Assembly (NCBI GenBank): GCA_900543975.1
Contig: UQTI01000004.1
Coordinates: 1,474 to 65,473 of the forward strand
DNA length: 64,000 bases
Direction of reading: 5' to 3'
Source: an uncultured Prevotella sp.
Lineage (GTDB): Bacteria; Bacteroidota; Bacteroidia; Bacteroidales; Bacteroidaceae
Part shown: positions 1 to 42,631 of the stretch, piece after piece
Position numbering within the stretch: position 1 is the stretch's first letter
How the letters are laid out: each line of letters opens with the position of its first letter
Program-made: the position numbers and the translations under genes
Notes under the pieces: generated by a model
Told to the model about the DNA's origin: nothing
Databases searched by the model: none
What the model saw: only the letters and a program-made list of their open reading frames with translations

Positions 1-117
1 CAGGTCGCGAACGGTCTGTGCTCCGACGGTCAGGGGGAGCAGCAGCAGGAGAAGGGCGATCGCCCGACGGGGCTGAACGCTTCGCAGCCAGGCGAGAGGG
101 TTTGTTGATATTGCCAT
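1..117 (-). CDS. N-terminal fragment of a secreted protein; gene continues beyond the window start
   Basis: Reverse complement from 117 reads MAISTNPLAWLRSVQPRRAIALLLLLLPLTVGAQTVRDL, a signal-peptide-like start. The ORF is open to the window edge. Confidence 0.3.
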   Translation of the reverse strand, partial: MAISTNPLAWLRSVQPRRAIALLLLLLPLTVGAQTVRDL

Positions 118-267
118 TTTTGTTGTTTTGTGCCATGCAATGGCACGGTTAAAAAAACAAGTGTGCCGGACGGTCCCGACACACTTGTTTTTATCGTTTT
201 TGTTGCTTTAACATGTTATGTTGCGGTCACGCGCTGTGTCCGCGCAAGAAGGGTGCGCGGGGAGAGA

Positions 268-2019: not shown

Positions 2020-2197
2020 AAGATTATTATTTGTTTAATGTTAATATTAATACCAATGTTAGGTGCAAAGATAATGAGAATAAAAGACAACACAAAGAAT
2101 TGACGCTACATTTTTTGCGTCACGAAACGAAAATGTTGCTTCTTTTGCCGCTTTTTTATTGCTTCTTTGCCGCTTCTTTAGCGTTTTTAGCGCTTTT

Positions 2198-2530
2198 TTA
2201 TCGCAACTCGGGCACGATGGCGAAGAACACGAGGTCTTCGGTGCCGTCGTTTGCCATGTAATGGGCGTGGCCTTTGGGGCAATAGTGGACCTGACCCGGG
2301 CCCACGGTTTCCACCACGTCGTCATAATGGCATGTTGCCACGCCGCTGAGCACATAGATCACCTCACAGTTGGTCTCATGTGTGTGCAGACCTGTTGAAG
2401 CTCCTGCGGGGAGAATGTTTTTCATTATCTTACATGTGTCGTCGCCGAAAGCGCGACAAACGAACAGGCCTTTTCCACCCTTGAAGCCGTCGATGTTGGC
2501 GGCAGGAATTTTTGAAAAATCTATTACCAT
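2198..2530 (-). CDS. cupin domain protein
   Basis: 110 aa ORF with a His-rich cupin-like metal-binding pattern (GLHTHETNCEVIYVLSG ... HYCPKGHAHY). Confidence 0.55.
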   Translation of the reverse strand: MVIDFSKIPAANIDGFKGGKGLFVCRAFGDDTCKIMKNILPAGASTGLHTHETNCEVIYVLSGVATCHYDDVVETVGPGQVHYCPKGHAHYMANDGTEDLVFFAIVPELR

Positions 2531-2591
2531 AATATATTTTTATATGTGTTTTGTTGTGAACCACGGTTTTTTGCAGGTTCAGATGTTATTT

Positions 2592-4376: not shown

Positions 4377-4660
4377 AGGTCGCCTCCTTTCTTCAGGCGC
4401 TGCTTGACCTCGGCAAGGGGCTTGAACACAAGCACCAGTTTGGGGGGCACCATCAGCTTCTGCCCCGTGGACGGATTTACAACAATGCGCTCCATGCGGT
4501 TTTTCAGTTCGAAAGAACCGAACGACGGCACGGTGACGCTCTCGCCTTCATCGAAGCGCGAAGCCATGGCTTCTATTACGCATCGCACAAGGCGTTGGGT
4601 GTTGTCTTGCGAATAGCCGCTACGTTGCGACAGCTCAGCGATAAAGTCTTTATTGTTCAT
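4373..4660 (-). CDS. HU family DNA-binding protein
   Basis: 95 aa with a typical HU/IHF fold sequence (MNNKDFIAELSQRSGYSQDN...FGSFELKNRMERIVVNPSTGQKLMVPPKLVLVFKP). Confidence 0.85.
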   Translation of the reverse strand: MNNKDFIAELSQRSGYSQDNTQRLVRCVIEAMASRFDEGESVTVPSFGSFELKNRMERIVVNPSTGQKLMVPPKLVLVFKPLAEVKQRLKKGGDL

Positions 4661-4723
4661 CTGTCAGGGGGATTTTTTATTGAACTTTTTGCGTGTTCAG
4701 GGGTTAAGGAAAAACATGGGGGG

Positions 4724-6028
4724 CTACTTGTCGGCCAGCTCGGCATAGAGGTCGAACTCGTCGCTGTCTACTATGCGCACGCGGTGGAACGAGCCCACGC
4801 GCAAGCGGCGGTCGGCAGCAGGGATGAGCACCTCGGGGTCGACCTCGGGCGAACAGTACTGGGAGCGGGCAATGTAATAGTCGCCCTCCTTGCGGTCTAT
4901 TATGACCTTCATCTCCGTGCCCACCTTCGCAGCCTCTACCTCGGCAGAGATCTGCTGCTGAACGGCCATGAGGCGGTCCAGACGGTCTTGTTTCACCTCG
5001 GCGGGAACGTCGTCTTCATAGTGCTCGGCGCTGTAGGTGCCCTCCTCTTCCGAATAGGCGAAGGCGCCCATGCGCTCGAAGCGTGCCCAGCGCACAAACG
5101 ACACCAGCTCCTCAAAGTCGGCCTCGGTCTCGCCGGGGAAGCCCACGAGCAGCGTGGTGCGGATGTTGATGCCCGGCACGCGGCGACGGATCTCGGCGAT
5201 GAGGTCCATGGTCTCTTGCTTGGAGACGTGGCGGTGCATGCGGGTGAGCACGTTGTCGGAGATGTGCTGCAGGGCGATGTCGAGATACTTGCACACGTTG
5301 GGACGCGACGCTATGACGTCGAGCAGCTCCAGGGGAAACTGGTTGGGGTAGGCATAATGGAGGCGGATCCACTCTACGCCCTTTATGTCGGCCATGTGGT
5401 CTATGAGCTCGGCGATGTGGCGCTTGCCGTCGATGTCGACGCCATAATAGGTCAGCTCCTGGGCAATGACCTGTATCTCCTTCACGCCTGAAGCCACCAG
5501 CTCACGCACCTCGTCAAGGATCTCGCTCTCGGGACGGCTGACGTGCTTGCCCGTGATGATGGGTATGGCGCAATAGGCGCAATGGCGGTCGCAGCCCTCG
5601 CTGATCTTGAGGTAGGCATAATGGCGCGGGGTGGTGAGCACACGACGGCCCTCACACGACGGCGTGATGTTGCTGCCGAGGTCCTTGATGAGGTTCTTGT
5701 AGTCGAACTTGCCATAATATTTGTCGACATGAGGAATCTCCTCCTCAAGCTCCTTGCGGTAACGCTGTGAGAGACAGCCCATGACAAAGAGTTTCTTCAA
5801 GCGGCCTTCTTCCTTGGCCTTGGCAAACTCAAGAATGGTGTCTATGCTTTCCTGCTTGGCGTCTTCAATGAAGCCACAGGTGTTTATCACGGCAATCTCG
5901 CCCTGAGGACGCTTGGAATCGTGAGCGCAACGGTAGCCCGCGGCCTCAAACTGACGCATAAGGCTCTCGCTGTCGACAAGGTTCTTGGAACAACCCATCG
6001 TTATAATATCTACATGACCTGACTTCAT
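4724..6028 (-). CDS. rimO: ribosomal protein S12 methylthiotransferase RimO (radical SAM MTTase)
   Basis: 434 aa. N-terminal MTTase domain with GCSKNLVDSE, a CxxxCxxC radical SAM cluster (CDRHCAYCAIP) and a C-terminal TRAM domain. Confidence 0.9.
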   Translation of the reverse strand: MKSGHVDIITMGCSKNLVDSESLMRQFEAAGYRCAHDSKRPQGEIAVINTCGFIEDAKQESIDTILEFAKAKEEGRLKKLFVMGCLSQRYRKELEEEIPHVDKYYGKFDYKNLIKDLGSNITPSCEGRRVLTTPRHYAYLKISEGCDRHCAYCAIPIITGKHVSRPESEILDEVRELVASGVKEIQVIAQELTYYGVDIDGKRHIAELIDHMADIKGVEWIRLHYAYPNQFPLELLDVIASRPNVCKYLDIALQHISDNVLTRMHRHVSKQETMDLIAEIRRRVPGINIRTTLLVGFPGETEADFEELVSFVRWARFERMGAFAYSEEEGTYSAEHYEDDVPAEVKQDRLDRLMAVQQQISAEVEAAKVGTEMKVIIDRKEGDYYIARSQYCSPEVDPEVLIPAADRRLRVGSFHRVRIVDSDEFDLYAELADK

Positions 6029-6075
6029 TGGTGTTTATCTTTTTTCAATATATCTAAATCTAAATTGTTGTTGTC

Positions 6076-6205
6076 TTTGCTGGGGTGTTTTGTTTGCAGG
6101 GGCATTGTTGTTTGCAGGGGCGTTGTTGTTTGCCGGGATGTTGAAATGGGGGTTGAAGGGATGTTGAAAGGGGTGTTGAAAGAGGTGTTGAAGGGGCGTT
6201 GCATG
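6076..6205. repeat. degenerate tandem repeat, about 9 units of GGrYGTTGwwrg(g)
   Basis: gcattgttgtttgcagg ggcgttgttgtttgccgg gatgttgaaatgggg gttgaaggg atgttgaaagg ggtgttgaaaga ggtgttgaagg, located between rimO and ftsY. Confidence 0.5.
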
Positions 6206-6247
6206 GTTTGCGTTGCGAAGCGTTCTGCAAGCCCCTCCTTTTTTATT
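6193..6247 (+). terminator. intrinsic-terminator-like hairpin on the plus strand (GGGGCGTTGCA...TGCAAGCCCC followed by TCCTTTTTTATT)
   Basis: A 10-bp GC-rich stem followed by a T-run on the + strand only. It overlaps the ftsY stop codon. No + strand protein gene lies upstream. Confidence 0.4.
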
Positions 6248-7202
6248 ACTTGTTCTCGAAAAGCGAGTTGACAAACTGCTTCTTGTTGAACAGCTGCAGA
6301 GCCTCCATCGACTCGCCCAGACCGATATATTTTACAGGCACCTTGAGCTGGTCGCTGATGCCGATGACCACGCCGCCCTTGGCTGTGCCGTCGAGCTTGG
6401 TGATGGCGAGGGAGGTGACGGGCGTTACGGCCGCAAACTGCTTGGCCTGCTCAAAGGCGTTCTGCCCCGTGCTGCCGTCGAGCACAAGCATGACCTCGTC
6501 GGGAGCGGTGGGAACGACCTTCTTCATGACGTCCTTGATCTTCTTCAGCTCGTTCATAAGGCCCACCTTGTTGTGAAGGCGGCCAGCCGTGTCGATGAGC
6601 ACCACGTCGGCGCCGTTGGCCTTGGCAGAGGAGATGGTGTCGAAAGCCACAGACGCAGGGTCGGAACCCATCTGCTGCTTGATCACGGGCACGCCCACAC
6701 GTTCGCCCCAGATGCAGATCTGCTCCACGGCGGCGGCACGGAAGGTGTCGGCGGCGCCAAGATAGACCTTCTTGCCGGCTTTCTTAAACTGGTATGCGAG
6801 CTTTCCAATGGTTGTGGTCTTGCCCACGCCGTTCACGCCGACGACAAGGATGACGTAAGGGGTGTGGTCGGAGGGCAGCTCCCAATCGTCGTTGTCGGTG
6901 GTGTTGTTCTCTGAGAGCAACGAAGCGATCTCTTCGCGAAGGATGCGGTTGAGCTCGGAGGTCGACACATACTTGTCGCGGGCAACGCGCTCCTCGATGC
7001 GTTTGATGATCTTGAGCGTGGTGTCAACACCCACGTCGGATGTTATGAGCACCTCCTCAAGGTTGTCAAGCACATCGTCGTCGACGGTCGACTTGCCGGC
7101 AATGGCACGCGCCAGCTTGTCAAACACGCTGTGTTTCGTCTTCTCAAGACCACCATCAAGTATTTCTTTCTTGTTTTTGTTGAAAAGTCCAAATATTCCC
7201 AT
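6246..7202 (-). CDS. ftsY: signal recognition particle receptor FtsY
   Basis: 318 aa with an NG domain and SRP GTPase motifs (GVNGVGKTTTIGKLA, DTAGR, TKLDGTAKGG). Confidence 0.9.
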   Translation of the reverse strand: MGIFGLFNKNKKEILDGGLEKTKHSVFDKLARAIAGKSTVDDDVLDNLEEVLITSDVGVDTTLKIIKRIEERVARDKYVSTSELNRILREEIASLLSENNTTDNDDWELPSDHTPYVILVVGVNGVGKTTTIGKLAYQFKKAGKKVYLGAADTFRAAAVEQICIWGERVGVPVIKQQMGSDPASVAFDTISSAKANGADVVLIDTAGRLHNKVGLMNELKKIKDVMKKVVPTAPDEVMLVLDGSTGQNAFEQAKQFAAVTPVTSLAITKLDGTAKGGVVIGISDQLKVPVKYIGLGESMEALQLFNKKQFVNSLFENK

Positions 7203-7435
7203 TGATTGAAATTTTATTTATTGCAAAATTAAGAAATAAAGCTGAAATAGAAAAGCATTTTCCGTAGATTAATGCAGATAAACCCATAAATAAAGGCAAA
7301 TTAGAGCATTTTGACTAACCAACAAGCACAATCGGCTCCTTTTATATTTACATTCTCAATATTTTTCACTTTTTCTTGTGAAAAAACCTTGATTTGAGAA
7401 ACTTTTCGTAAATTTGTACCCAAAGCAACGTTATT

Positions 7436-7687
7436 ATGAGTCCTGTGTTTAGACGCGAAAGCGAATATACTTTCAAAATATACTCCAACGAGGAGGTACG
7501 GATGCACATCCATGTGCTCTACAACGGCAAGGAGGCCAAATATTGGCTGGAGCCACAGGTAGAACTTGCCAAGAATACAGGCATTCCTGAGCACAAGTTG
7601 AATGAAATTAAGAAAATCGTAGAGAAATATGCAGACAACTTCAAAGAACAATTCCGCCAACACATCGGCAAGCGTATTGATGATTAA
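7436..7687 (+). CDS. DUF4160-like small protein
   Basis: 83 aa (MSPVFRRESEYTFKIYSNEEVRMHIHVLYNGKEAKYWLEP...), typical of the DUF4160 family. Translationally coupled to the next ORF (ATGATTAA overlap). Confidence 0.55.
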   Translation: MSPVFRRESEYTFKIYSNEEVRMHIHVLYNGKEAKYWLEPQVELAKNTGIPEHKLNEIKKIVEKYADNFKEQFRQHIGKRIDD

Positions 7688-7919
7688 CGCTCAGGGCATT
7701 ATGCTCTCTGTGTTGGGTAACGACTATTTCTTGTCATATAACCGCATACCGTGGATGCAGGACGCTCCCATCCGTAGCGTGCTGAACGTACAGATGAGTG
7801 GTCCAGAAGCCATCGAATGGCCCGATCTTGACGTGGATCTCGAAATAGACAGCCTTCGCCATCCTGAACGCTATCCGCTTGTCATCAAACGGAGTCAGAT
7901 GGATTTTGTGGCTGAATAG
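7680..7919 (+). CDS. DUF2442-like small protein
   Basis: In-frame ATG at 7680 overlapping the upstream stop. The product MINAQGIMLSVLGNDYFLSYNRIPWMQDAP...IEWPDLDVDLEIDSL resembles DUF2442, a family commonly paired with DUF4160. Confidence 0.5.
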   Translation: MINAQGIMLSVLGNDYFLSYNRIPWMQDAPIRSVLNVQMSGPEAIEWPDLDVDLEIDSLRHPERYPLVIKRSQMDFVAE

Positions 7920-8138
7920 AGCCGACTGTCTTTTTTTAGAAGGTATGTGGTAAAGAAAAAAATAAGTTATGTACATTTTTTCAAGCAAGCGTCGCCGTGC
8001 TCGATTTTGACGCTTGCCGTCGCCGTGCTCAACTTTGTCGCTTGCTTGAGAAGAAAATCACTTGAAAAGTGTTTATCATACGCTTGCGAAAGTTCAATTA
8101 ATGAATTTAAGACAAGAAGCATTTAACAATAAAGAATC

Positions 8139-8414
8139 ATGAGCACAGAAAACTCTCAACAGATAACGAAAGACAGCGTGGAACAGGCGTTCTGCTTTTT
8201 CCATCAGAAATGGCGCGTGTATGAACATTCTACTATGGATTGGCAAAAGGACGATATAGAATATGCCATCTCTCAATATGTCGAAGAAATGAACACAGCC
8301 CTCTACTCTACCCTCTCGTCCGGAAACAACCATTATCTGCTCACACACGACAGCTTCGCTAAGGATCTGCCTGACGCAATAGACAGACTGGAGGAAATGA
8401 TGGAAAATATTTAA
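8139..8414 (+). CDS. hypothetical protein
   Basis: 91 aa ORF followed by a clean terminator at 8569-8604. No recognisable domain. Confidence 0.35.
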   Translation: MSTENSQQITKDSVEQAFCFFHQKWRVYEHSTMDWQKDDIEYAISQYVEEMNTALYSTLSSGNNHYLLTHDSFAKDLPDAIDRLEEMMENI

Positions 8415-8568
8415 AGGTAAAAGGGTGCTTTAAAGGTAAAAAGGGAGCTTTAAAAGTAAAAAGGTAAAAGGGTAAAAAGGTAAAAAAAGGGCTGGCGCCG
8501 TTGAAAGGAAACGGTAAAAAGGGAAAAAGGTAAAAAAAGGCTGGCTGGGAGCAATATGAATGATTAAC

Positions 8569-8604
8569 GGCGTGCAACACAATGTGTTTGCACGCCGTTT
8601 TTTT
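8569..8604 (+). terminator. rho-independent terminator (GGCGTGCAACAC...GTGTTTGCACGCC then T8)
   Basis: A 12-bp stem with one bulge followed by TTTTTTTT on the + strand. Confidence 0.55.
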
Positions 8605-8618
8605 ATGATAGAGCACGC

Positions 8619-9935
8619 CTATTTTATTATCTCGCAAACGGTTTTCAGACCTTTGATCTTTTCGTTCTTTACCTTTGAGAGAAGAGCCTTGACAGCTGAT
8701 GCGCTGACAGCCACATAAGCGTAACGTTCCTTAACGTCGATCTTGCCTATGAGGGAGCTGTCAAGACCTCCCTTCTTGCAGAGGAAGCCCACAATGTCGC
8801 CACGGCTGATCTTGTCTTTCTTGCCCTTGCCTATGTAGATGGTCTTCATGCGGGGAGCAGCAGGAAGAGGAAGGGGCTCGGGGAGAGCAACCTCTGCAGA
8901 GGGACCGACATACTGAGGCAACGTTTCCTTCGGACCAAGGATGAAGAGGGAGGTGCCTTCGGCCTGCCAACGGGCTGTACGGCCCACACGGTGGATGTAG
9001 GCTTCGGGCGTCTCGGGCAGATGGTAATGGACAACATGGGCTATGTTGTCGATGTCAAGACCACGAGAGGCAAGGTCGGTACACACCATGACGTTGGCTG
9101 ATCCGTTGGAAAAATTGTAGAGGGCTGCCTCGCGTTGCTTCTGGTCCAAGCCGCCATGGAAGGCGCTCACAACGAAGCCTTTGCCCTCAAGGTAACAGGC
9201 TATGCGCTCCACGCTCTCGCGATGGTTCACAAACACGATGGTGCTGTCGGCTGACGTGGTGCAAAGGTAAGCGTAGAGGGTGTCGAGCTTGTCGTTGACA
9301 GGGCTGTGAAGAACCTGAAGCTCTATGCGCTGGCGCACGTCGGCGCTGTCTTCAAGATAGTTGACAAGCTCCACGTTCTGCATGTTGACGAAACGGGGTA
9401 TGCTGTCGGCGTTGGTGGCTGAGAGGAGGATGTGGCGGTTGGCAAACTTGAGCTTGCCCATGACGCTCATCATCTCGCCGCTGAAGCCCATGTCGAGACA
9501 TTTGTCGAACTCGTCGATCACAACTGTGCGCACCTTCAAGGGCGAGATGTTTTCCTTGTCAAGATGGTCGTTAAGACGGCCTGGGGTGGCGAAGACGATG
9601 TGGGGACGCAGGATGCGCAGCTCACGGTGCTCGTCCATGGCCATGCGACCGCCAAAGGCGGCGTAGCCTCTCACGCCGCAACCCATCTGCTGAAGCACCT
9701 TGGCCGACTGCAGGGCGAGCTCACGCCCTGGCACGATGACGATGGCCTGGACGTCGTCGACGGCGGGGTTCACGGCGCCGACAAGCGGCAGGAGGTAAGC
9801 AAGGGTTTTGCCTGTGCCTGTGGGCGACAGAACGACGATGTCGTGGTTGGTGCGCTCAAAGGCGCTGGCTGTGGCCTTCTGCATGGCGCTGAGCGTGCTT
9901 ATGCCCAGCTTTCTGTATATCTCTTTATTGTCCAT
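8619..9935 (-). CDS. DEAD-box ATP-dependent RNA helicase with a C-terminal DbpA-type RNA-binding domain
   Basis: 438 aa with a Q motif, motif I (SPTGTGKT), a DEFD box, SAT, an HRVGRTAR-like motif VI, and a C-terminal DbpA domain (GDIVGFLCKKGGL...). Confidence 0.9.
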   Translation of the reverse strand: MDNKEIYRKLGISTLSAMQKATASAFERTNHDIVVLSPTGTGKTLAYLLPLVGAVNPAVDDVQAIVIVPGRELALQSAKVLQQMGCGVRGYAAFGGRMAMDEHRELRILRPHIVFATPGRLNDHLDKENISPLKVRTVVIDEFDKCLDMGFSGEMMSVMGKLKFANRHILLSATNADSIPRFVNMQNVELVNYLEDSADVRQRIELQVLHSPVNDKLDTLYAYLCTTSADSTIVFVNHRESVERIACYLEGKGFVVSAFHGGLDQKQREAALYNFSNGSANVMVCTDLASRGLDIDNIAHVVHYHLPETPEAYIHRVGRTARWQAEGTSLFILGPKETLPQYVGPSAEVALPEPLPLPAAPRMKTIYIGKGKKDKISRGDIVGFLCKKGGLDSSLIGKIDVKERYAYVAVSASAVKALLSKVKNEKIKGLKTVCEIIK

Positions 9936-11145
9936 TTTTCTTCTTTATTATTTTTTCTATCTCGTCAAACTCTTTTCCCATATTCAAATTGAAATAGATG
10001 GTGTAAAGGGGTAATCCCCACTTGGCCTGTTCCTCGGGACGCAACTTGCGAAACTGCTGGAGATAAGGCATGGCTCGCTTGTAGAGCTGGCGCTGCTTGG
10101 AGCGGTTCTTACGTGCTTCCAGAATGTTGGCATCATATTTTATGGCCTGGTTGTAGAAGGCCAATCCTGCGTTAAGATAGGCATCGGCGAGCGAGTCGTT
10201 TCGGGCGATGAGCTTGTCGCACATGTCTATACACGCGTCGTAAGCCTGACTCTCAAGAAGCAAGGAGCTTTTGGCAAGCAGGAACACCGTGTTGGTGCTG
10301 TCGGCCTTGAGGGCTTGGTCGCAAAGGGTCATGGCCTGGGAGAGATTGCCATTGAGGTTGAAATAGTGGTCAAACAGGCGGGGAAAATAATACATGCTCG
10401 TGGGGAATTTACCGAAGCCCTGCTCCAAGGTCTTGACATAGAGGGCCGTGTCTTTGACCGAACGATAGGTCTCGGCAAGATACTGGTACTTGTTGTTGAG
10501 ATTGGCCGTGTCTTGAAGAGCGAGACCGAGATAACGCATGGTCTTGTCGTAGCTGTTGAGCTTGTAGCCGCAGAACAACGACATGTAGGCGGCGTTGTGG
10601 GCGTTGGCATCTTTCTCTACGCTTAGGCCGCTCTCGGAAAACAGGGGGCAGGAAAGACACTCAAGGTAGGTGTCGAACATGGTGTAAGCATCGGCATAGG
10701 CTTGCTTCTTGACAAAGAACAGACCGCCGGTATAGAGGTTCTTACGATAGTTGAGAAGGAAGGCGGCATGCTTTTTCCTGTATTTGGGGCGCGACTGGCC
10801 ATGAGAGTTGGGACGCGCGTCTATGCTGTCAAAGGCGGCATAGACCTCAAACATCTTGCGGGCGTTGACGAACAGTTGGGTCGTGTCGTACTTGTTCTTC
10901 AGATACAGTTGTTCGTTACCATTGTCATACTGCTTTTTCACGGCATCGAAAAGGACATCCCATATTTTTGTGTTCTCACGATTGTTAGAATCGTTGAGAA
11001 GTGTTCGCATCATCATTTCCGCTTTGGGCAGATCACGATTGTTCTTAACCATGTCCTTGGCTGAAGAGATGTCTTTCTTTTGCGCAAAACATCCAAGAGC
11101 GGCAATGAAGACGGAGATAAACAGAGGGAGAAATCTTTTGAGCAT
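9925..11145 (-). CDS. TPR-repeat protein with signal peptide
   Basis: 406 aa. N-terminal signal peptide (MLKRFLPLFISVFIAALGCFAQ) and repeated TPR-like helical pairs. Paralogous in organisation to the upstream TPR gene. Confidence 0.6.
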   Translation of the reverse strand: MLKRFLPLFISVFIAALGCFAQKKDISSAKDMVKNNRDLPKAEMMMRTLLNDSNNRENTKIWDVLFDAVKKQYDNGNEQLYLKNKYDTTQLFVNARKMFEVYAAFDSIDARPNSHGQSRPKYRKKHAAFLLNYRKNLYTGGLFFVKKQAYADAYTMFDTYLECLSCPLFSESGLSVEKDANAHNAAYMSLFCGYKLNSYDKTMRYLGLALQDTANLNNKYQYLAETYRSVKDTALYVKTLEQGFGKFPTSMYYFPRLFDHYFNLNGNLSQAMTLCDQALKADSTNTVFLLAKSSLLLESQAYDACIDMCDKLIARNDSLADAYLNAGLAFYNQAIKYDANILEARKNRSKQRQLYKRAMPYLQQFRKLRPEEQAKWGLPLYTIYFNLNMGKEFDEIEKIIKKKNGQ

Positions 11146-11294
11146 AATAAGGAATCGGAATGAATGTGGTTATACAAAAACAATCTGTATGAAGCAAATT
11201 GCATGAAAACAATTCATCTCCCCACATCTTCAACGCTCACGCTGAAAACATGGGGAGACGGGTTGTCTAAAAGGGTGTCATGAGCTTACGGTTC

Positions 11295-12500
11295 TTACTG
11301 GTTGACAAGGCCTTTCAGCTCAGCTGTGCGGCTGTCGCTCTCGCCATAGAGAGCATAGTAGCATTGGTAGAGAGGATAAGCCCAGTTGGCCTCGTTACGG
11401 TTAGGATCGAGGTCGCGTGCCTTCTCAAGGTAGGTTACCGACTCTTCGAGCAGCTTCTTCTGGGCTTCGCCGTCGAGGCTTGCTGCCTTTGCGTTGATGC
11501 AGGCGCCGATGTAGGTGCACATGATCGACTTCTTGGGGTCGATCTCGTGGGCCTTCTTGAAATCGGCAATGGCCTCGTCATACTTTCTCTCGTTCATCTC
11601 GCTCTGGCCTCTGATGGCGTAAGCGAAGTAGCACTTGGGATCCTCTGCCAGCTTCTCGGCAACGAGCTTGTCCTGCTTGTCTTTCATGCCGAGGTTGCCA
11701 TACATGCTTGCCAGGTTGGTGAAGATGGCATCGCTCTTGTCTTTTGCATAGAGGGTCTCAAACTGTGAGAGACACTTTACTGAGTCTTCACGGGTTTTCA
11801 GGGTCTGCTGCATGAGATACATCTTAAGCTCCAGAGCGTCCTTGTAAGAGGCTGTGTCGTTGAGGGCCACGTCGCAGTAGGCGTTTGCCTTCTCCATGTT
11901 CTTGTCCTGGAAAGCATAGATGGCTGCGAAACGGGCAATCTGACCAAGATACTGGTCGGGCATCTTTGCAACGTCGCGGTCGGCGAAGAGCTTGTCGGTA
12001 GCGGTCTCTACATAGAGAGAAAAATATTCGGATGCTGCCTTGGTGTCTTGAGCGTTGCCTGCGTCCTGACCTGCATTGATGAGGTTTACACGCAAAGGCC
12101 ACAGGGTTTCCTGGTTCTTCTTGTGGAACTTGGGAGCAATCTTGCCCTTGGCGTTGGGCATGTTGTCATACTTGTCACACTCCATTGCGTCCTTGAGAGC
12201 TGTGCAGATGGCCTTGTTGTAACCCACGGTGTCATAGGGCTCTACCTTGCCCTGACCGAGCTGCTGAGCCACAGCGTTGCCGCTGATGGTTGCGCTCTCG
12301 TGGTTGATCTTCTCCATAGAGAGCTGCACGAGCTTGTTGTAGGCCTTGGCCTTTGACTCGTTGTCAAGAGAAGCGAGGCTGCTCTGCAAGAGGGTCTGGG
12401 CTTCAGAATAGGTTTTTGCTTTTAGGATGGGCTTGACATCCTGAGCAAGGGCCGTTGTGGCAGCTGCTGCCATAAGGGCCATGATCATGAGTTTCTTCAT
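11295..12500 (-). CDS. TPR-repeat protein with signal peptide
   Basis: 401 aa with a signal peptide (MKKLMIMALMAAAATTALAQ) and multiple TPR-like motifs (AYxxxG...Y..A). Confidence 0.65.
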   Translation of the reverse strand: MKKLMIMALMAAAATTALAQDVKPILKAKTYSEAQTLLQSSLASLDNESKAKAYNKLVQLSMEKINHESATISGNAVAQQLGQGKVEPYDTVGYNKAICTALKDAMECDKYDNMPNAKGKIAPKFHKKNQETLWPLRVNLINAGQDAGNAQDTKAASEYFSLYVETATDKLFADRDVAKMPDQYLGQIARFAAIYAFQDKNMEKANAYCDVALNDTASYKDALELKMYLMQQTLKTREDSVKCLSQFETLYAKDKSDAIFTNLASMYGNLGMKDKQDKLVAEKLAEDPKCYFAYAIRGQSEMNERKYDEAIADFKKAHEIDPKKSIMCTYIGACINAKAASLDGEAQKKLLEESVTYLEKARDLDPNRNEANWAYPLYQCYYALYGESDSRTAELKGLVNQ

Positions 12501-12555
12501 ATATCAAAAATTAATAATAAATGTGAATTGTCTGTTATGTGTCAACGGCCTATTA

Positions 12556-15267
12556 TCAGTCGTTGGTGAAGAAATCGGTTCCGGCAAACAGGTCGCCAGG
12601 ACCATCGTTGTTCTTCTTTTCATCCTTTGAAGCGGCACCTTCATTTGCGTCATCTGTCTCCGTTGCTTCGCCAGCTTGTGCTGTTACGGGAGCTTCAGAA
12701 GCCTCGGTTGCCCCGTCGGCCGAAGACGTGGCTGTGTGGTCGCTGTTTATGAGTTCCTGCTTCTCGTTGAAGGTCGACTGGCTGTCTTCCTCTACCGAGG
12801 CTTCGAGCTCGCTGCTCATGACCTTGCACACGCTTGCGATGACGTCGTTCTTCTTGGCGAGGTTGATGAGACGAACGCCCTGTGTGGCGCGTCCCATAAC
12901 ACGACACTCGGCTACAGAAAGACGAATGGCGATGCCGCTACGGTTGATGATCATGAGGTCGTTGTCGTCGGTAACGTTCTTGATGGCTACCAGACGGCCT
13001 GTCTTCTCCGTGATGTTGAGGGTCTTCACTCCCTTGCCGCCACGCGCTGTCTTGCGATAGTCTTCAACCTGTGAGCGCTTGCCGTAGCCTTCTTCTGAAA
13101 CGACCATGACGGTCTCGGTGGCTGCGTCGTTAACGACAATCATGCCTATCACGGCATCGTCGCCATCGTCGAGCTTCATGCCGCGCACACCTGTTGACAC
13201 ACGACCCATGCAACGCACGTCGGTCTCGTTGAAACGAACGGCACGACCGTTGCGGTCGGCAATGATAAGCTCGTTGTGGCCGTTGGTCAGACGCACGTCA
13301 ACCACCTCGTCGCCATCGGCAATGTTGATGGCTATAACGCCGTTGGCACGCGGACGCGAGTAGGCCTCAAGAGAGGTCTTCTTGACCGTTCCGTTCTTGG
13401 TGGCGAACACCACATAGTGGGACTTGACAAACTCTTCATCGTCAAGACCACGGAGGCGCAGAAGGGCGTTGACCGAATCGTCGCTCTCGATGTTGAGCAT
13501 GTTCTGTATGGCGCGACCCTTGAAGTTTTTGTCGCCCTCGGGAATCTCGTAGCACTTGAGCCAGTAGCAACGACCCTTGCGTGTGAAGAACAGCATGGTC
13601 TGATGCATAGTGGCGGGATAGATATACTCGGTAAAGTCTTGTTCGCGTGTGCGTGCGCCCTTGGCTCCCACTCCACCTCTTGCCTGCTCGCGGAACTCGC
13701 TCAGCGGCGTGCGCTTGATGTAGCCCAGATGGCTCACCGTTATCACCACGGGGTCGTTGGGATAGAAGTCTTCGGCGTTGAACTCGTGCTCGTAAGGCTT
13801 GATCTCGGTACGACGGGCATCGCCATACTTTTCCTTAACCTCCTGAAGCTCATCCTTCATGACCTGCTTGCACAGTTCTGGATCGTCAAGGATTGCCTGC
13901 AAATGGGCGATGAGCTTCTCCAGCTCTTCATACTCGTTGCGCAACTGGTCCATGCGCAGACCTGTGAGCTGTGCCAGACGCATGTCTACGATGGCCTTCG
14001 ACTGGAGCTCGTCAAGCTCGAAACGCTTCTCAAGGTTGCGCTGGGCGTCGACGGGGGTCTTGCTGGCTCTGATGATGTGGACCACCTCATCGATATTGTC
14101 GCACGCGATGATGAGACCTTGTATGATGTGGGCACGATCCTGTGCTTTCTTCAGGTCAAACTTGGTACGGCGAATCACAACATCGTGACGATGCTCTATA
14201 AAGTGGGCGATGCAGTCTTTCAGAGAGAGAAGACGCGGACGACCCTTCACCAAGGCAATACAGTTGACAGAGAACGAGCTCTGCATGGCTGTCATCTTGT
14301 AGAGCTTGTTGAGGATCACGTTGGCGTTGGCATCGCGCTTAACGTCAACCACGATACGCATGCCTTGACGGCCTGACTCGTCGTTAACGTTTGAGATGCC
14401 GTCGAGACGTCCTTCCTTTACAAGGTCGGCAATGTTTTCAACGAGCTGCGCCTTGTTGACACCATAAGGAATCTCGGTAACGACAATCTTGTCGTGGGTG
14501 TCGCCACTCTCGATCTCCGACTTGGCACGCAACACAATGCGGCCACGTCCTGTCTCATAAGCATCCTTAACGCCCTGTAGACCATAGATATATGCTCCTG
14601 TCGGGAAATCGGGAGCCTTGACAAACTGCATGAGGCCCTCGGTGTCGATGTCAGGATTGTCGATGTAAGCGCAACAGCCATCGATAACCTCCGACAGGTT
14701 GTGGGTCGGAATGTTTGTGGCCATACCTACAGCAATGCCGTTTCCGCCATTTACCAAGAGGTTGGGAATGCGGGTAGGCATAACTGAGGGTTCTGCCAGG
14801 GTGCCGTCAAAGTTGGGCACCATGTCAACAGTATCTTTCTCAAGGTCGTCCATAATGTGCTCACCCATCTTCGAGAGGCGGCACTCGGTGTAACGCATAG
14901 CAGCTGGTGAGTCGCCGTCAACAGAACCGAAGTTGCCGTGACCGTCGACAAGCATGTAACGCATGTTCCAGTCCTGACCCATACGCACAAGCGCACCATA
15001 AACAGAAATGTCACCATGGGGGTGATACTTACCCAACACCTCACCTACAACACGCGCACACTTCTTGTAGGGGCTATTGCTTGTGTTGCCGATGCCCAAC
15101 ATGCCGAAGAGTATGCGGCGGTGAACAGGCTTGAAACCATCGCGCACATCAGGGAGCGCACGGGCCACAATCACCGACATACTGTAGTTGATGTAAGAGG
15201 TCTTCATCTCCTCCTCGATATTGACCTTCAAAATTCGGTCCATATCAAATGTCTGATTTTCGTCCAT
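12556..15267 (-). CDS. gyrA: DNA gyrase subunit A
   Basis: 903 aa. The N-terminal region carries the catalytic Tyr segment (AMRYTE), the GyrA box (QARGGKGV-like KTARGGKGVKT) and a beta-pinwheel C-terminal domain, followed by an acidic C-terminal tail. Confidence 0.9.
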   Translation of the reverse strand: MDENQTFDMDRILKVNIEEEMKTSYINYSMSVIVARALPDVRDGFKPVHRRILFGMLGIGNTSNSPYKKCARVVGEVLGKYHPHGDISVYGALVRMGQDWNMRYMLVDGHGNFGSVDGDSPAAMRYTECRLSKMGEHIMDDLEKDTVDMVPNFDGTLAEPSVMPTRIPNLLVNGGNGIAVGMATNIPTHNLSEVIDGCCAYIDNPDIDTEGLMQFVKAPDFPTGAYIYGLQGVKDAYETGRGRIVLRAKSEIESGDTHDKIVVTEIPYGVNKAQLVENIADLVKEGRLDGISNVNDESGRQGMRIVVDVKRDANANVILNKLYKMTAMQSSFSVNCIALVKGRPRLLSLKDCIAHFIEHRHDVVIRRTKFDLKKAQDRAHIIQGLIIACDNIDEVVHIIRASKTPVDAQRNLEKRFELDELQSKAIVDMRLAQLTGLRMDQLRNEYEELEKLIAHLQAILDDPELCKQVMKDELQEVKEKYGDARRTEIKPYEHEFNAEDFYPNDPVVITVSHLGYIKRTPLSEFREQARGGVGAKGARTREQDFTEYIYPATMHQTMLFFTRKGRCYWLKCYEIPEGDKNFKGRAIQNMLNIESDDSVNALLRLRGLDDEEFVKSHYVVFATKNGTVKKTSLEAYSRPRANGVIAINIADGDEVVDVRLTNGHNELIIADRNGRAVRFNETDVRCMGRVSTGVRGMKLDDGDDAVIGMIVVNDAATETVMVVSEEGYGKRSQVEDYRKTARGGKGVKTLNITEKTGRLVAIKNVTDDNDLMIINRSGIAIRLSVAECRVMGRATQGVRLINLAKKNDVIASVCKVMSSELEASVEEDSQSTFNEKQELINSDHTATSSADGATEASEAPVTAQAGEATETDDANEGAASKDEKKNNDGPGDLFAGTDFFTND

Positions 15268-39846: not shown

Positions 39847-40181
39847 TTTTTAAAAATTGGTGTTGTTAATAGTTTAGGCAGTAAAATTACAAAAAAAATC
39901 TGACATTTTCGCCCCTTTTCTCAAATAAACACAAAAAACATTATCTTAACATTTTCATTTTTTCTACATTCCGTTTTTTTACTTTTCATCATTTTTCGGG
40001 TCTAAACAAACCAGCAACTGGGTAAACCGACAGCACGTCATCGGAGCGGGCTAAACACAACATTTCAAGCAAGCCAAAACGTCACTTATGGAGCGTAAAA
40101 ACGTCATAAAAGGAGCATAAGCAAGCCCTGAAAGGAGCGTAAAGGCAAGCACGCCTCTTTTAACGGGTCTTTATCTTGACA

Positions 40182-40685
40182 TTATCTGTTAGCGTCAGCA
40201 TCAGGTTCTGCTGCAATGTCGCTTTCTTCTCCCGGCAGCACATACCGTCTTAACTTGTGGTCTTCGACAAAGATGTGGTTGATGGTGAAGACGAGCGACT
40301 GAAGGGTTGCCTCCCTTACCTTTGGCTTCAGTTGACATTCCCATACCGTGATACAATGCCACCCCATGCTGGCAAGGCGTTTCTGCTCCTCCTTGTCCCT
40401 GCTTCTGTTGCGTTCAATCTTCGCTTGCCAGAAGGCAGTCCTGCTCTTTGGCATGACAAAAAGTTTGCAGCCTTCATGGCCGTGCCAAAAACAGCCGTTG
40501 ACGAAGATGACCGTGCGATACTTGCGCATCACGATGTCCGGATGTCCCGGCAGCCGCGGGTGGTTCACCCTATACCGGAACCCGTGCGCAAACAGATAGC
40601 GGCGCACCACCATTTCGGGTTTGGTTGCCTTGCTGTGTATGGATGCCATGCAGCGGCTTCGCTGCTCCTTTGTCATCTTGTCCAT
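40182..40685 (-). CDS. vsr: very short patch repair endonuclease (Vsr)
   Basis: The match to the E. coli Vsr core is direct (MTKEQRSRCMASIHSKATKPE...PGHPDIVMRKYRTVIFVNGCFWHGH...WQAKIERNRSRD...GWHCITVWECQL). The ORF could extend to 40718, but the start is probably the Met at 40685. Confidence 0.85.
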   Translation of the reverse strand: MDKMTKEQRSRCMASIHSKATKPEMVVRRYLFAHGFRYRVNHPRLPGHPDIVMRKYRTVIFVNGCFWHGHEGCKLFVMPKSRTAFWQAKIERNRSRDKEEQKRLASMGWHCITVWECQLKPKVREATLQSLVFTINHIFVEDHKLRRYVLPGEESDIAAEPDADANR

Positions 40686-40719
40686 TGTTCTGCTTTCGAT
40701 TAATGTTGCGCATTTCATA

Positions 40720-42037
40720 AAAATGCGCCGAGGACAAAGTTACGGATATTTTCTGTAAAGAGATTTACTTTTAGAAGGAAAAAAGCTTTGTCATTTGATT
40801 TTTTATAGCGCCAACTTGCTTGAAACCGCTTCCAAACAAGATTTCGTTGCAACTGTTAAGATGTACAGATGTGAGCAGTTGCAGCATCAAAATGTGTTGA
40901 AACGATGAGATTGAGCGTGGTTTGAGGATGCATAAGGGCAAGAAATGCACAATTATGAGCTTTTATACAATGCTTAAAAATGGATGAAGCGTTTGTCGCC
41001 AACGCTGCAACTCGCTAGGTATAAGCCTTTTAGAGGGAAGCAACAGACAGTAAAAGCGTTTCAGTTTCAGTTGTTTCAGTTGATTTTTAAGGAGTACAGC
41101 ATTCTACTCTCTTTATGTAATATATTGATTATTAATTAGTTATAAATAATATAAAGAGGATATGAAACATAACTGACCCTTAAAAAACGAACTGAAACTG
41201 AAACAACTGAAACGCTTTGACAAACCAAGATGTTTCATTATCACCTCTCAAGCAAGCGTCGCATGCCATGAAGAGGCTTGGATGCTTCCAAAAATAAGAC
41301 AGAATGTGTAGATAAAAAGGATAGAATTTGTAGAAAAAGAGGGTTGAAAACATGTAAAAGGGGTTAGAAAGCACGCAAAAGGGGTTAGAAGATATAAAAT
41401 GTGCTCCATTTAGATGTGTTGCATGTTCAGCAAAATATAATGGAACAAAGGGCTTTTGCATGGTTTTTGACCGTTACAAGAGCAAAATAGAGGGAAAAAG
41501 GTGGGAAAAAACCTGTGTTTTGCAGCTTTACAAGGGTGTTTTTTGATGTTTTGTCCTTTCTCATTCGCTGCCTCAAACCCGTAAAGCGTTGATAATGAGC
41601 CTTTTAGAAAGAAGCAAGCAACCCGTCGGTTCCAATTCCAGTTATTCCAATTATTTTTTTTGTATTTCCATTATCTTATATTTATATATATATTATATAT
41701 ATAATATATTAATAATCAATAAGTTATAAAGCTCTTAAAAAGAGGGTTCGCATTTGAAATGCCATTTTTTTAATTGGAATAACTGGAATTGGAACCACTG
41801 GATGGAATAACTGGAATTGGAATAACTGGAATTGGAATAACTGGAATTGGAACAGGAACATCTGAAACAGAAAGGTGTCTTATCGTTAAGCCAAAAGAGC
41901 AGAACCGAGCTTGCTCAGAATCTGCCATCGCGAGAAAAGGTGCTATAAAACAGAACGACAGGTAACATTAAAAAAAACGTCAGGTTTGTCACCTGACGTT
42001 CTGTTTCAAGATTGATGAATAGAAGCCCAATGGTTCT
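40720..42037. repeat. 1.3 kb non-coding block containing two palindromic elements of identical architecture (conserved AGCCTTTTAGArrGAAGCAA box, 26-28 bp inverted-repeat arms made of short tandem units, and a 110-116 bp AT-rich spacer)
   Basis: Element 1: arms 41054-41081 (TTTCAG x3) and 41190-41217 (CTGAAA x3). Element 2: a perfect 26-bp IR, GGTTCCAATTCCAGTTATTCCAATTA at 41629-41654, with its reverse complement at 41771-41796, followed by 4x GGAATAACTGGAATT tandem repeats. Confidence 0.6.
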
Positions 42038-42631
42038 TCACTCAAAGGCCAGTTTGTCAAGACGTGTACGCAGCTGCTCAGCTTCCGATTGTCTGATGCT
42101 TAAGGTTATCTGACATGTGTTGTCGAAGTTTTGCGACACGATTCGTGGCTTCATCTCCTTCACAATGCGCATGACGTCGTTCATCATGACGTAAGGAAAG
42201 TTGAACACCACCTCTTCCTCCACCTGGCAGGTTACGGTCTCGGCATGGTCTATAGCGTCGGCAGCAGCCGTTTTATAGGCCACGAGCAAGCCGCTGGTGC
42301 CGAGCTTCACTCCGCCAAAATAGCGCACCACGATGATGAGAATGTTGGTAAGCTCGTTCTTCACGATCTGTCCGAGAATGGGTTTGCCTGCCGTGCTGCT
42401 GGGCTCGCCGTCATCGTTGGTTCGGAAGAGGCTGCTGTCGGCTCCGAGCATGAAGGCATAGCACACATGCCTGGCGTCGTAGAAGCGCTTGCGATAGGTC
42501 TGCACGATGTCTTTAACCTGTTCTTCGGTTTCCACATGATGAGCGAAGGCGTAAAACTTGCTGCGCTTCTCGCTATAGAAGCCTTCAGCTGGGGTTGATG
42601 TTATGGTCTTGTATTCGTCAATAATTTCCAT
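42038..42631 (-). CDS. yigZ: YigZ/IMPACT family protein (UPF0029)
   Basis: 197 aa (FYAFAHHVETEEQ...CYAFMLG...DDGEPSSTAGKPIL), an IMPACT N-domain plus a C-terminal domain. Confidence 0.8.
   Translation of the reverse strand: MEIIDEYKTITSTPAEGFYSEKRSKFYAFAHHVETEEQVKDIVQTYRKRFYDARHVCYAFMLGADSSLFRTNDDGEPSSTAGKPILGQIVKNELTNILIIVVRYFGGVKLGTSGLLVAYKTAAADAIDHAETVTCQVEEEVVFNFPYVMMNDVMRIVKEMKPRIVSQNFDNTCQITLSIRQSEAEQLRTRLDKLAFE

Follow-up and report, generated by a model that had tools for sequence, protein, structure and literature searches.

Two gene-less copies of a Prevotella phage element, probably a replication origin, in a gene-free block of a Prevotella chromosome

What explains an odd 1.3-kb stretch in the chromosome of an uncultured Prevotella sp. 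(positions 40720-42037 of the 64,000 nucleotides analysed here, referred to as the window) that holds no evident gene and two palindromic elements built on one plan? A preliminary description of this DNA offered iteron-flanked DNA-unwinding elements, paired att/recombination sites, long-hairpin non-coding RNAs and decayed MITEs as candidates, with an association to the chromosomal origin or terminus to be checked by GC skew. We consider it probable that the two elements, E1 and E2, are gene-less copies of a cis-element of Prevotella phages, most likely a replication origin, left as orphans in a decayed module. The argument for an origin is drawn from anatomy, gene linkage and analogy.

The block and its two elements

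The block is bounded on the left by vsr, the gene for a very-short-patch repair endonuclease (40182-40718, minus strand), and on the right by the terminator hairpin of yigZ (41974-42002, minus strand). In strain L014, a group II intron is inserted beside this terminator hairpin. Between strains, vsr and the block (40123-41794) are about 90% identical, against 97-99% in the flanks. The insertion between vsr and yigZ was observed in this species only; the block is not present beside yigZ in species with a YigZ that is 74-79% identical, and synteny in related species breaks at the position of the block. The earlier statement that the block holds no ORF of any quality is right in substance, although the longest ORF, of 93 aa on the minus strand (41180-41461), is in frame with the decayed helicase-gene relic described below. 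The AAAAGGGGTTAGAA direct repeats that had been noticed between the elements were found in two copies, at 41356 and 41377, and belong to a tandem array of 21-22-bp units (41290-41390, about 4.5 copies) inside the decayed helicase reading frame and in frame with the relic ORF. A counterpart of this array was sought in the phage loci and not found.

Comparison of the block with plasmids by blastn gave 0 matches, and with phages only AT-rich matches of 31-39 nt to Lak phages, which were judged to be due to chance. No Rfam family matched the whole window at gathering thresholds; on the block, at E<=1, only plant miRNA-hairpin models were returned, with 20-28 bits against thresholds of 85-195. A scan for sigma-70-type promoters, a consensus unsuited to Bacteroidota, yielded AT-rich pseudo-matches only.

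The leader box AGCCTTTTAGARRGAAGCAA that opens each element occurs exactly twice in the 64 kb, at 41024-41043 and 41598-41617, where 0.05 matches are expected in shuffles with 3 mismatches tolerated. The boxes are 574 bp apart, in agreement with the earlier claim of two elements on one layout, about 570 bp apart and each with a conserved leader, and the positions given for them were confirmed. All their parts lie on the plus strand. In E1 (41021-41220), the leader (AGCCTTTTAGAGGGAAGCAA, 41024-41043) is followed by a left arm (41053-41082) of three TTTCAG hexamers, the putative iterons, starting at 41059, 41065 and 41074 and thus spaced 6 and 9. The AT-rich interior (41083-41187, 78% AT), a putative DNA-unwinding region, holds the core motif ATTATTAATTAGTTATA (41128-41144) and AAAGAGG (41153-41159). 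The right arm (41188-41218) has three CTGAAA hexamers, inverted relative to the left arm, at 41192, 41198 and 41207, so that three units face three, as had been described. Over their whole 46 nt the E1 arms are 74% complementary, with perfect sub-matches of 18 and 15 nt; they are not a strict mirror, the right-arm spacing being 6,9 instead of 9,6.

In E2 (41588-41801 by its match to the phage profile, 41588-41854 with its tandem tail), the leader (AGCCTTTTAGAAAGAAGCAA, 41598-41617) precedes a left arm (41628-41653) of three TTCCA(A/G) hexamers starting at 41630, 41636 and 41645, again spaced 6 and 9. The interior (41654-41770, 83% AT) carries a (TA)n run (41677-41709), the core motif ATAATCAATAAGTTATA (41712-41728) and AAAGAGG (41739-41745). 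It is followed by the right arm and a tail of tandem 15-mers with inverted TGGAA units (41771-41854), the arm proper being 41771-41796. The two arms form a 26-nt inverted repeat, 100% complementary, with 117 nt between them, and the 15-nt repeat runs through 5.5 copies (41772-41852); the perfect repeat and its tandem extension had both been seen correctly.

The arms had been said to differ between the elements. They are not unrelated: both left arms consist of three TTNCAR hexamers at spacings of 6 and 9 nt, where N is T in E1 but C in E2. Likewise, the interiors are AT-rich as described (the window as a whole has 51% AT), but they are no mere spacers, since they carry the conserved motif ATWATYAATWAGTTATA N8-10 AAAGAGG, which occurs within the window only at E1 and E2. 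Leader and arm were also considered as a small ORF; this was rejected because, by inspection, the reading frame is unlike between E1 and E2.

Phage homologues and a relic of their helicase gene

A profile built from 63 distinct phage copies only (model length 244) was run over the window with nhmmer. On the plus strand it matched E2 (E 2.9e-26, 86.7 bits, model positions 4-209) and E1 (E 1.6e-19, 64.6 bits, model positions 11-211) and nothing else. These matches establish, at the level of sequence, that E1 and E2 are homologous to the phage element, and the 20-mer TTTCAGTTTCAGTTGTTTCA of the E1 left arm is identical in one phage locus (L034).

In 70/70 Prevotella phage or prophage loci, which are those examined that offer at least 400 nt of sequence before the gene, a complete element lies directly upstream of one conserved gene of about 446 aa. 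The gap between start codon and leader is 22-36 nt and that between leader and left arm 22-24 nt; the left arm has three hexamers spaced 6 and 9, and the AT-rich centre between the arms measures 103-106 nt in 68 of the 70. The centre holds a core palindrome, TATAACTA N13 TAGTTATA, which is degenerate in both window copies; in E1 it is the left half (TATAACTA) that has degenerated. On the far side stand 3 or 4 inverted hexamers (3 + 3 or 3 + 4 in total). Here the spacing is 8,9,8 or 9,9,9 in 68/70 copies, compared with 6,9 on the left, so the arms of the phage copies are not mirror images; what is conserved across them is the hexamer and its orientation. In addition, at least 39 of the 70 have an inverted copy of the leader box past the right arm.

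An exact scan for the leader in 185,579 species genomes returned 10 matches, of which 9 were due to chance and one was a real homolog (L003). The scan found a single true homolog because the leader varies, many phage copies having variant leaders. The suggestion of a decayed MITE, or of a dispersed repeat, is not supported: there is no multi-copy family with conserved ends, the window copies have different arms, and elsewhere the element is tied to one gene. Among viral contigs, an exact scan with the TTTCA arm found only the already-known contig L034, and the TTACA arm of strain L011 was found in no phage. Two degenerate arm patterns gave at least 240 chance loci in the viral contigs, and none among the matches listed fits the element profile. 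No host flanks common to the phage loci and the window were found when an integration site was considered.

The idea that replication of this Prevotella chromosome might start or end in the block has next to no probability in our view. Its appeal lies in the cumulative GC skew of the window, with a minimum at about 40-41 kb, in the repeats that flank AT-rich DNA and in the break of synteny at the block. However, the skew past 41 kb is flat, not positive, with a second extreme at a distance of only 27 kb. DnaA boxes are at chance level (12 near-matches in the window versus 11.3 expected, one of them in the block), related species do without the block, and its elements are homologous to the phage element.

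A trace of the phage gene was found between the elements. Thirty-two codons on the minus strand (41392-41488; ILLL*RSKTMQKPFVPLYFAEHATHLNGAHF) align to residues 25-56 of the phage protein, here called Rep, and hence to the N-terminus of a Rep-like helicase. The hmmsearch score with the Rep profile is 6.6 bits, and the best of 300 block shuffles reached 2.3; strand and distance from the E2 leader are those expected from the phage copies. There is no intact helicase gene in the window, no helicase-gene trace is left beside E1, and a relic of the gene that lies upstream of the element in phages was sought in the window and not found. In L003, which belongs to another species, the element is accompanied by the first 85 codons of the helicase gene only. 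The intact phage gene, the 85 codons of L003 and the 32-codon relic of the window make up a decay series. Since the window has no rep gene and only this trace, E1 and E2 would be orphan members of the family, and the block would be left over from one or two replication modules of phages. The preliminary description had conceded that an intact gene in homologs would make the block a pseudogenised remnant; this largely applies, because in phages the homologous elements adjoin a gene that is intact, of which a relic was found here.

The Rep-like protein itself has no sequence match in Pfam, PHROG, NCBIfam or PDB. With distant homologs in the alignment, AlphaFold2 gave a model with a pLDDT of 91.5 and a pTM of 0.80; a shallow alignment (>=77% identity) had given a pLDDT of only 44, so distant homologs were needed. 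The best Foldseek matches of the model are MCM2-7, and the predicted fold is that of an MCM-like AAA+ core with a C-terminal winged helix. The protein is probably a divergent DUF3987 member. Of 36 distant homologs collected with phmmer (E down to 1e-40), 7 matched PF13148 (DUF3987; best E 1.1e-6; one scored 27.5 bits where the cut-off is 27) and 6 have an N-terminal BT4734-like AEP primase domain. In L034, rep is followed by the gene for a DnaG-type primase with a CHC2 zinc finger; endolysin, tail-fibre-like and S24 repressor-like genes lie in the vicinity. The Walker A loop of the Prevotella subfamily is atypical, SGCNKGQ where the distant homologs have GxGK, so helicase activity is not assured.

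PMC4889955 describes the DUF3987 proteins as MCM-related replicative helicases of SF6 that carry a wHTH at the C-terminus and are associated with primases, and helicase activity was shown for one of them (PMC11724360). The same combination of an MCM-like AAA+ fold, a C-terminal winged helix and an associated primase was found for the Prevotella Rep. The DUF3987 (PF13148) helicases of phages and mobile elements, including AgaPH and the N4 dns-type, share the MCM-related core and wHTH with it, and their primase is encoded next door or fused. They differ in that the Prevotella Rep lacks a Pfam match and has the atypical Walker A loop; moreover, it has a candidate origin, while none is described for DUF3987 proteins in the parts of PMC4889955 and PMC11724360 used here.

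The layout around rep outlives its sequence, as different repeats with the same architecture accompany Rep homologs at 39-45% identity. For example, the locus of a homolog at 39% identity (L370) has three CGAATAAC and three GTTATTCG around an AT-rich core, which contains TAGTTATAAAT and spans 118-128 nt between perfect repeats; that of a homolog at 45% identity (L369) has three TTCCAG and three CTGGAA. In the winged-helix domain, the predicted helix 404-416 is taken to be the recognition helix. It reads KNQLYKWV in three phages with TTCCA iterons (74-88% identical overall) and NRQLRVWT in the one phage with TTTCA iterons, a correlation that draws on a single TTTCA phage and is the one hint that Rep may bind its own iterons specifically. 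Within the TTCCA group, arm classes showed no clustering with fixed winged-helix differences.

A candidate origin and the competing readings

By analogy with SaPI Rep, the element could work as an origin in the following way. The winged helix of the Rep-like helicase would bind the TTNCAR hexamers as iterons; because these are opposed on either side of an AT-rich region of about 105 bp, one helicase ring would be assembled per side. The AT-rich centre would then melt, and the adjoining DnaG-type primase would prime synthesis. Inverted initiator or helicase sites also flank an AT-rich melting region in archaeal origins (inverted ORB around a DUE) and in the core origins of SV40 and papillomaviruses. 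Such a layout is suited to loading two MCM-like or SF3 rings head to head; it is an analogy of mechanism only, the proteins and sequences being unrelated and from another domain of life. In satellite phage P4, ori and crr carry short repeated octamers in direct and inverted orientation that are bound by the C-terminal winged helix of the alpha primase-helicase. These two separate repeat-bearing sites on one DNA recall the tandem E1 and E2; however, alpha joins an SF3 helicase and a Toprim primase in a single fused protein, repeat sequence and layout are unlike, and one repeat serves both P4 sites, whereas those of E1 and E2 differ.

The origins of SaPIs have 6-12 iterons of five or six nucleotides, divided equally between the two sides of an AT-rich centre. 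Each side has two or more, those of one side pointing against those of the other, and the winged helix of Rep binds them (PMC9371898). The iteron number falls within this range in E1 (3 + 3 TTTCAG/CTGAAA) and in the phage copies (3 + 3 or 3 + 4), and lies slightly above it in E2, where 3 TTCCA and 10 TGGAA including the tandem tail make 13. An AT-rich centre flanked by iterons is present in E1, E2 and the phage copies, and two or more opposed iterons per side in E1, E2, all 70 phage copies, L369 and L370. A rep gene adjoins in 70/70 phages, where the element is upstream of it and not downstream, and is missing from the window. The likeness to SaPIs and other PICIs thus extends from the opposed hexamer sets around an AT-rich centre to the adjoining genes for an SF6 MCM-like winged-helix helicase and a primase, and to an iteron sequence that depends on the lineage. 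The differences are these: the SaPI ori is downstream of rep, and the phage element has a leader box and the core palindrome. The host is a member of the Bacteroidota, the carriers look like full-size phages (tail-fibre-like and endolysin genes) and not like 15-kb satellites, and the Prevotella Rep has no sequence similarity to SaPI Rep. For a phage origin in a chromosome, oriJ of the E. coli Rac prophage offers a parallel, described as active within a decayed prophage (PMC3945230). Rac keeps many genes, however, whereas the window has only elements of about 200 bp and a 32-codon trace, and oriJ is a lambdoid-type origin, not a Rep/MCM-like one.

The position upstream of the gene, where SaPIs have the ori downstream, means that the element may equally, or additionally, be the operator or promoter region of the helicase gene. 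Its hexamers would then be repressor or autoregulation sites looping out an AT-rich promoter, and the window copies orphan regulatory regions, with E1 possibly driving vsr. The element directly precedes the gene in every case, with a fixed spacing to the start codon; about 2.7 kb away in L032 is a gene whose product has a repressor-like S24 peptidase domain; and in the window vsr lies some 300 bp past E1 in the sense orientation. In iteron plasmids such as pSC101 and R6K, moreover, the sites bound by the initiator frequently serve as rep operators too. On the other hand, the Bacteroidota-type consensus (TTTG ... TAnnTTTG) is not visible by eye in the sense orientation of phage or window copies, and the layout is kept with unrelated repeats in distant Rep lineages. 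Symmetric arrays on both sides of some 105 bp with 78% AT, together with an MCM-like winged-helix helicase and a primase, match the anatomy of an origin (PMC9371898). We regard the regulatory reading as unlikely; it would also be compatible with origin function.

Both elements fold into long hairpins, far better than their shuffles do (z -7.9 and -5.1), and the E2 arms are complementary at 26 of 26 positions, with compensatory changes between strains. A long hairpin, as structured RNA or DNA cruciform, could therefore be what selection keeps, the arms staying complementary because pairing matters. Against this, 68/70 phage copies have non-mirrored arms and E1 is also out of mirror register, the "loop" would be 105-117 nt of AT-rich DNA with a conserved motif of its own, and all Rfam families are below threshold. 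We find a selected hairpin very improbable, and the proposal of a long-hairpin non-coding RNA is not supported.

The inverted repeats of 26-30 bp around 105-117 bp also fall within the size range of the invertible promoters of Bacteroidales, in which a site-specific recombinase would flip the AT-rich segment between the arms. The interior has one orientation relative to the leader in 11/11 chromosomal assemblies (the window and 10 others of the locus) and in 70/70 phage copies. No recombinase gene was called in the flanks of about 4 kb on either side of yigZ, and the arms are arrays of short repeats, not a single recombinase core site. An inverton has scarcely any likelihood on these counts, and paired att/recombination sites are not supported, given the uniform orientation. 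What remains of the earlier suggestions is the iteron-flanked DNA-unwinding element, which is supported as the presumed origin of a phage family and not as a chromosomal origin or terminus.

Strain variation and significance

Differences between strains are unevenly spread. In the E1 arms, 2/60 positions differ between strain haplotypes, against 110/811 elsewhere in the block (p = 0.016, for a comparison chosen post hoc), so that haplotypes differing by about 14% surround near-invariant arms. Three E2 alleles exist within the one species, and they switch all units of both arms together, with TTACA in L011 and an AAATC linker in the L012 group. The changes are compensatory, from TTCCA/TGGAA to TTACA/TGTAA and from GTTAT/ATAAC to AAATC/AGATT, and the copy number of the tandem 15-mers in the right arm varies between strains. 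No recent exchange between the chromosomal alleles and the sampled phage copies was found, all alleles being only 71-77% identical to phages.

A relic should drift, and neither the constancy of the E1 arms nor the concerted switching of E2 is explained by reading the block as a relic. The orphan origins might instead be maintained, whether by the host or by a minimal hitchhiker that lacks rep, as functional sites to which the initiator-helicase of infecting or resident phages binds, a proposal that we hold to be decidedly unlikely. They could serve as decoys that titrate or "handcuff" phage Rep, an origin-based interference with phage replication, or phage Rep could fire chromosomal replication at the orphan sites and amplify the neighbouring DNA. 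If they were kept in this way, the E1 hexamers would be intact and the E2 units swapped together because they track the specificity of circulating phage Rep.

The odd gene-free stretch is explained once it is read as what is left of one or two replication modules of phages. This reading also brings to light a replication module that has no annotation, occurs very widely in Prevotella of the human gut and comes with a clearly defined candidate origin. More than 3,600 members belong to the Rep-like helicase family, with single 90%-identity clusters of up to 9,194 sequences, and the carriers make up a common, undescribed family of Prevotella phages. The SaPI-type design of a self-loading MCM-like helicase plus an iteron origin would thereby be extended to phages of Bacteroidota, and the concerted switching of iterons in orphan copies between strains poses a small puzzle of phage-host interplay. 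Finally, the Rep-like family gains a concrete annotation, and Prevotella, which to our knowledge is still without good genetic tools, a candidate ori/rep cassette for its genetics.

The gene-free block and its two elements

The block is bounded by two minus-strand genes, vsr on the left (40182-40718; Pfam Vsr, E 4e-34) and yigZ on the right (42038-42631; UPF0029). It is a real feature and is now largely explained: its two elements, E1 (41021-41220) and E2 (41588-41854), most likely represent orphan copies within a family of iteron-type origins, the family associated with an MCM-like Rep module in Prevotella phages. As the preliminary description had stated, no credible gene lies in this interval of about 1.3 kb, which is surrounded by housekeeping genes (ABC-F, serA, serC, DUF1015, malic enzyme and others), and the two elements are built alike. 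The proposed leader box AGCCTTTTAGARRGAAGCAA is found in the window only at 41024 and 41598, against 0.05 matches expected in shuffles with up to three mismatches allowed. The inverted repeat of E2, described as perfect, is complementary at 26/26 positions (arms 41628-41653 and 41771-41796, 117 nt apart) and is followed by a 15-mer in 5.5 copies. E1 carries the reported three TTTCAG units opposite three CTGAAA units. The AT content is 78% in the E1 interior and 83% in the E2 interior, compared with 51% in the window.

Two points had to be revised. The arms had been described as differing within a conserved architecture; the architecture holds, but alignment of E1 with E2 shows that the arms are homologous, each consisting of three TTNCAR hexamers with 6- and 9-nt spacing, N being T in E1 and C in E2. 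Similarly, the interior is AT-rich as claimed but is not a mere spacer, since both elements, and within the window only these, share the motif ATWATYAATWAGTTATA N8-10 AAAGAGG.

Phage copies and the adjacent Rep-like gene

An exact leader scan covering one genome per species gave ten matches, the sole real one being L003, a locus in a Bacteroidaceae MAG. Scanning viral contigs with the interior motif led to L029, a provirus with a 446-aa ORF on the strand opposite to the element, its start directly adjoining the element's leader side. At the equivalent position in L003, a homolog of this ORF survives as its first 85 codons, so that L003 represents an intermediate stage of decay. Relatives of the 446-aa protein were found at 4 loci in viral sequences and 80 in metagenomes, and the whole element, at fixed spacing, was present in all 70 loci having enough sequence upstream of rep. 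In these copies, the leader lies 22-36 nt from the start codon, and 22-24 nt separate it from a left arm of three hexamers spaced by 6 and 9. The AT-rich centre (103-106 nt in 68/70 loci) holds the palindrome TATAACTA N13 TAGTTATA, which is degenerate in both E1 and E2, and three or four inverted hexamers occupy the far side. The leader is repeated in inverted form past the right arm in at least 39/70 loci.

A profile HMM built from 63 distinct phage copies alone, with no window sequence, gave two nearly full-length plus-strand matches in the window, one at 41588-41801 (E 2.9e-26) and the other at 41021-41220 (E 1.6e-19); the remaining matches were weaker reverse-strand echoes, as the element is symmetric. 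Only one other match to phage DNA was found in the rest of the block (69 nt at 41878-41946). Separately, the AT-rich core of E1 (41112-41150) matched the Prevotella Lak megaphages MK250015-MK250029 over 31-39 nt at 90-93% identity. Lak phage genomes are very AT-rich, and these matches are probably due to chance; the Lak hosts are nonetheless Prevotella.

The Rep-like protein has no sequence match in Pfam, PHROG, NCBIfam or PDB. The family exceeds 3,600 proteins in one search, all labelled hypothetical, and its 90%-identity clusters reach 9,194 sequences, with 2,455 in another single cluster. Many gene callers add 38 codons to the gene (e.g., L032:6001-7341 in a provirus), extending it into the leader/arm region and giving 484-aa versions. 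An exhaustive search gave 1,218 representatives, many of them 750-900 aa long and matching in their C-terminal half; among a subset of 36 distant homologs checked, DUF3987 was matched by seven and an N-terminal BT4734-like AEP primase domain was present in six. With the distant homologs as alignment, AlphaFold2 gave a model (pLDDT 91.5, pTM 0.80) whose top Foldseek matches were MCM2-7, and the protein is confidently predicted to fold as an MCM-like helicase with a winged helix. The DUF3987 literature supports the helicase assignment: one paper assigns these proteins to the MCM-related replicative helicases of SF6, with a wHTH at the C-terminus and, usually, an associated primase (PMC4889955), and another reports DNA unwinding for one of them (PMC11724360).

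In the locus L034, a CHC2 zinc-finger DnaG-type primase gene lies directly 3' of rep. Other genes near rep encode an Amidase_2 endolysin, a collagen/CBM tail-fibre-like protein, an SNF2 helicase and an S24-peptidase repressor-like protein; from this neighbourhood, the carriers look like phages or prophages. The L032 provirus encodes, about 2.7 kb upstream of its element, a 386-aa protein (L032:2138-3298) whose C-terminal domain is a LexA/CI-like S24 peptidase; this protein is a candidate for an SOS-cleavable repressor in these phages.

The element as a putative replication origin

In the pathogenicity islands of Staphylococcus aureus (SaPI), the origin adjoins rep and comprises six to twelve iterons of five or six nucleotides. 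These are split evenly around a central AT-rich region, with at least two on each side in opposite directions, and are the binding sites for the winged helix of Rep, a self-loading MCM-like protein (PMC9371898). The Prevotella element shares this anatomy and adjoins the same kind of protein. We infer that it is a phage replication origin, in which the Rep winged helix would read the hexamers, the AT-rich centre would melt and the primase encoded next door would start synthesis. The element may also be the operator or promoter of rep, a role that could coexist with origin function.

In 68/70 phage copies the right-arm spacing (8,9,8 or 9,9,9) does not mirror the left (6,9), so that the hexamer and its orientation are conserved and the pairing is not. 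The order of three repeats, AT core and three inverted repeats persists with Rep homologs of 39% and 45% identity, where the repeats themselves are different (CGAATAAC in L370, TTCCAG in L369). The unmirrored spacing and a layout kept with other repeats favour protein-binding iterons over a hairpin. A structured RNA is likewise disfavoured, as mirror symmetry is not kept in the phage copies and no Rfam match was found for the element. The predicted winged-helix helix 404-416 reads KNQLYKWV in three TTCCA-iteron phages, otherwise 74-88% identical, and NRQLRVWT in the one TTTCA-iteron phage; that this change tracks iteron type is suggestive only, resting on that single phage.

Relics, strain variation and arm evolution

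No intact rep gene is found in the window. On the minus strand, the Rep profile detects a relic of the gene (41392-41488; ILLL*RSKTMQKPFVPLYFAEHATHLNGAHF, aligned to Rep residues 25-56) with 6.6 bits, against a maximum of 2.3 among 300 shuffles, at the distance from the E2 leader predicted by the phage copies. A 93-aa ORF (41180-41461) continues this relic, and the dead frame contains a tandem array (41290-41390, about 4.5 units of 21-22 bp, GAAnnnnTGTAAAAGGGGTTA) that is conserved between strains and has no counterpart in phage loci. Neither a rep relic beside E1 nor a relic of the phage gene located upstream of the element was detectable. Most simply, this species alone would have acquired one or two phage replication modules between vsr and yigZ, whose genes were later lost. 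Rac prophage oriJ, likewise an origin retained in a prophage, is a known parallel (PMC3945230).

YigZ homologs carry the names Prevotella or Prevotellaceae. The block is present, colinear and in the same orientation in 10/10 human-gut metagenome contigs encoding an identical YigZ; it is absent from related species with YigZ at 74-79% identity, where synteny stops just past yigZ. An inverton is disfavoured by the single orientation throughout, a MITE by copies that are not dispersed, and a chromosomal oriC by the lack of a DnaA-box cluster and the relatives without the block.

Between strains, vsr and the block form an island about 90% identical within flanks 97-99% identical; the two main haplotypes differ by 10-19% in the block and by about 3% at third-codon positions of the flanking genes. 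Block alleles are mosaic: of the strain variants, L011 has E1 as in the window and an E2 only 85% identical, and L014 has E1 of the other type with a window-like E2. The E2 arms vary as a set. All three left units of L011 change from TTCCA to TTACA and five right inverted units from TGGAA to TGTAA, a few distal tandem copies still being TGGAA; in the L012 group the linker GTTAT/ATAAC becomes AAATC/AGATT. The E1 arms are near-invariant, with 2/60 differences versus 110/811 elsewhere (Fisher p = 0.016, comparison chosen post hoc).

Several other features were observed. In L014, an ORF-less group II intron of about 670 bp (L014:4749-5333) is inserted at window position ~41967, adjoining the yigZ terminator hairpin (41974-42002); it matches Rfam RF02001 (152.9 bits) as well as RF00029 and RF01998. 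Downstream of vsr lies a 22-nt tandem repeat (AAAACGTCATAAAAGGAGCGTA, 3.1 copies, 40076-40143), in a junction (39913-40123) that varies between strains, with an extra acetyltransferase gene in L011. Positions 1-15000 of the window are GC-richer (~0.55 vs 0.45) and have positive GC skew, negative in the next 20 kb though the genes share a strand; this may be a foreign segment.

The near-invariance of the E1 arms does not fit simple drift of a dead relic, nor does the replacement of the E2 arms and adjacent spacer in all units at once, with the core between them conserved. These patterns might come from gene conversion with unsampled prophages as donors, from repair templated by the palindrome together with slippage between tandem units, or from selection for a continued match to phage Reps. 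Every chromosomal allele shares only 71-77% identity with the phage copies sampled, and exact arm scans of viral contigs found TTACA arms in no phage; there is thus no documented case of recent exchange.

The manner of arm evolution is the one oddity of E1 and E2. SaPI-type origins and the relic origins of prophages are known examples of their kind. What is new is the family, whose Rep module is unannotated and very common in Prevotella phages.
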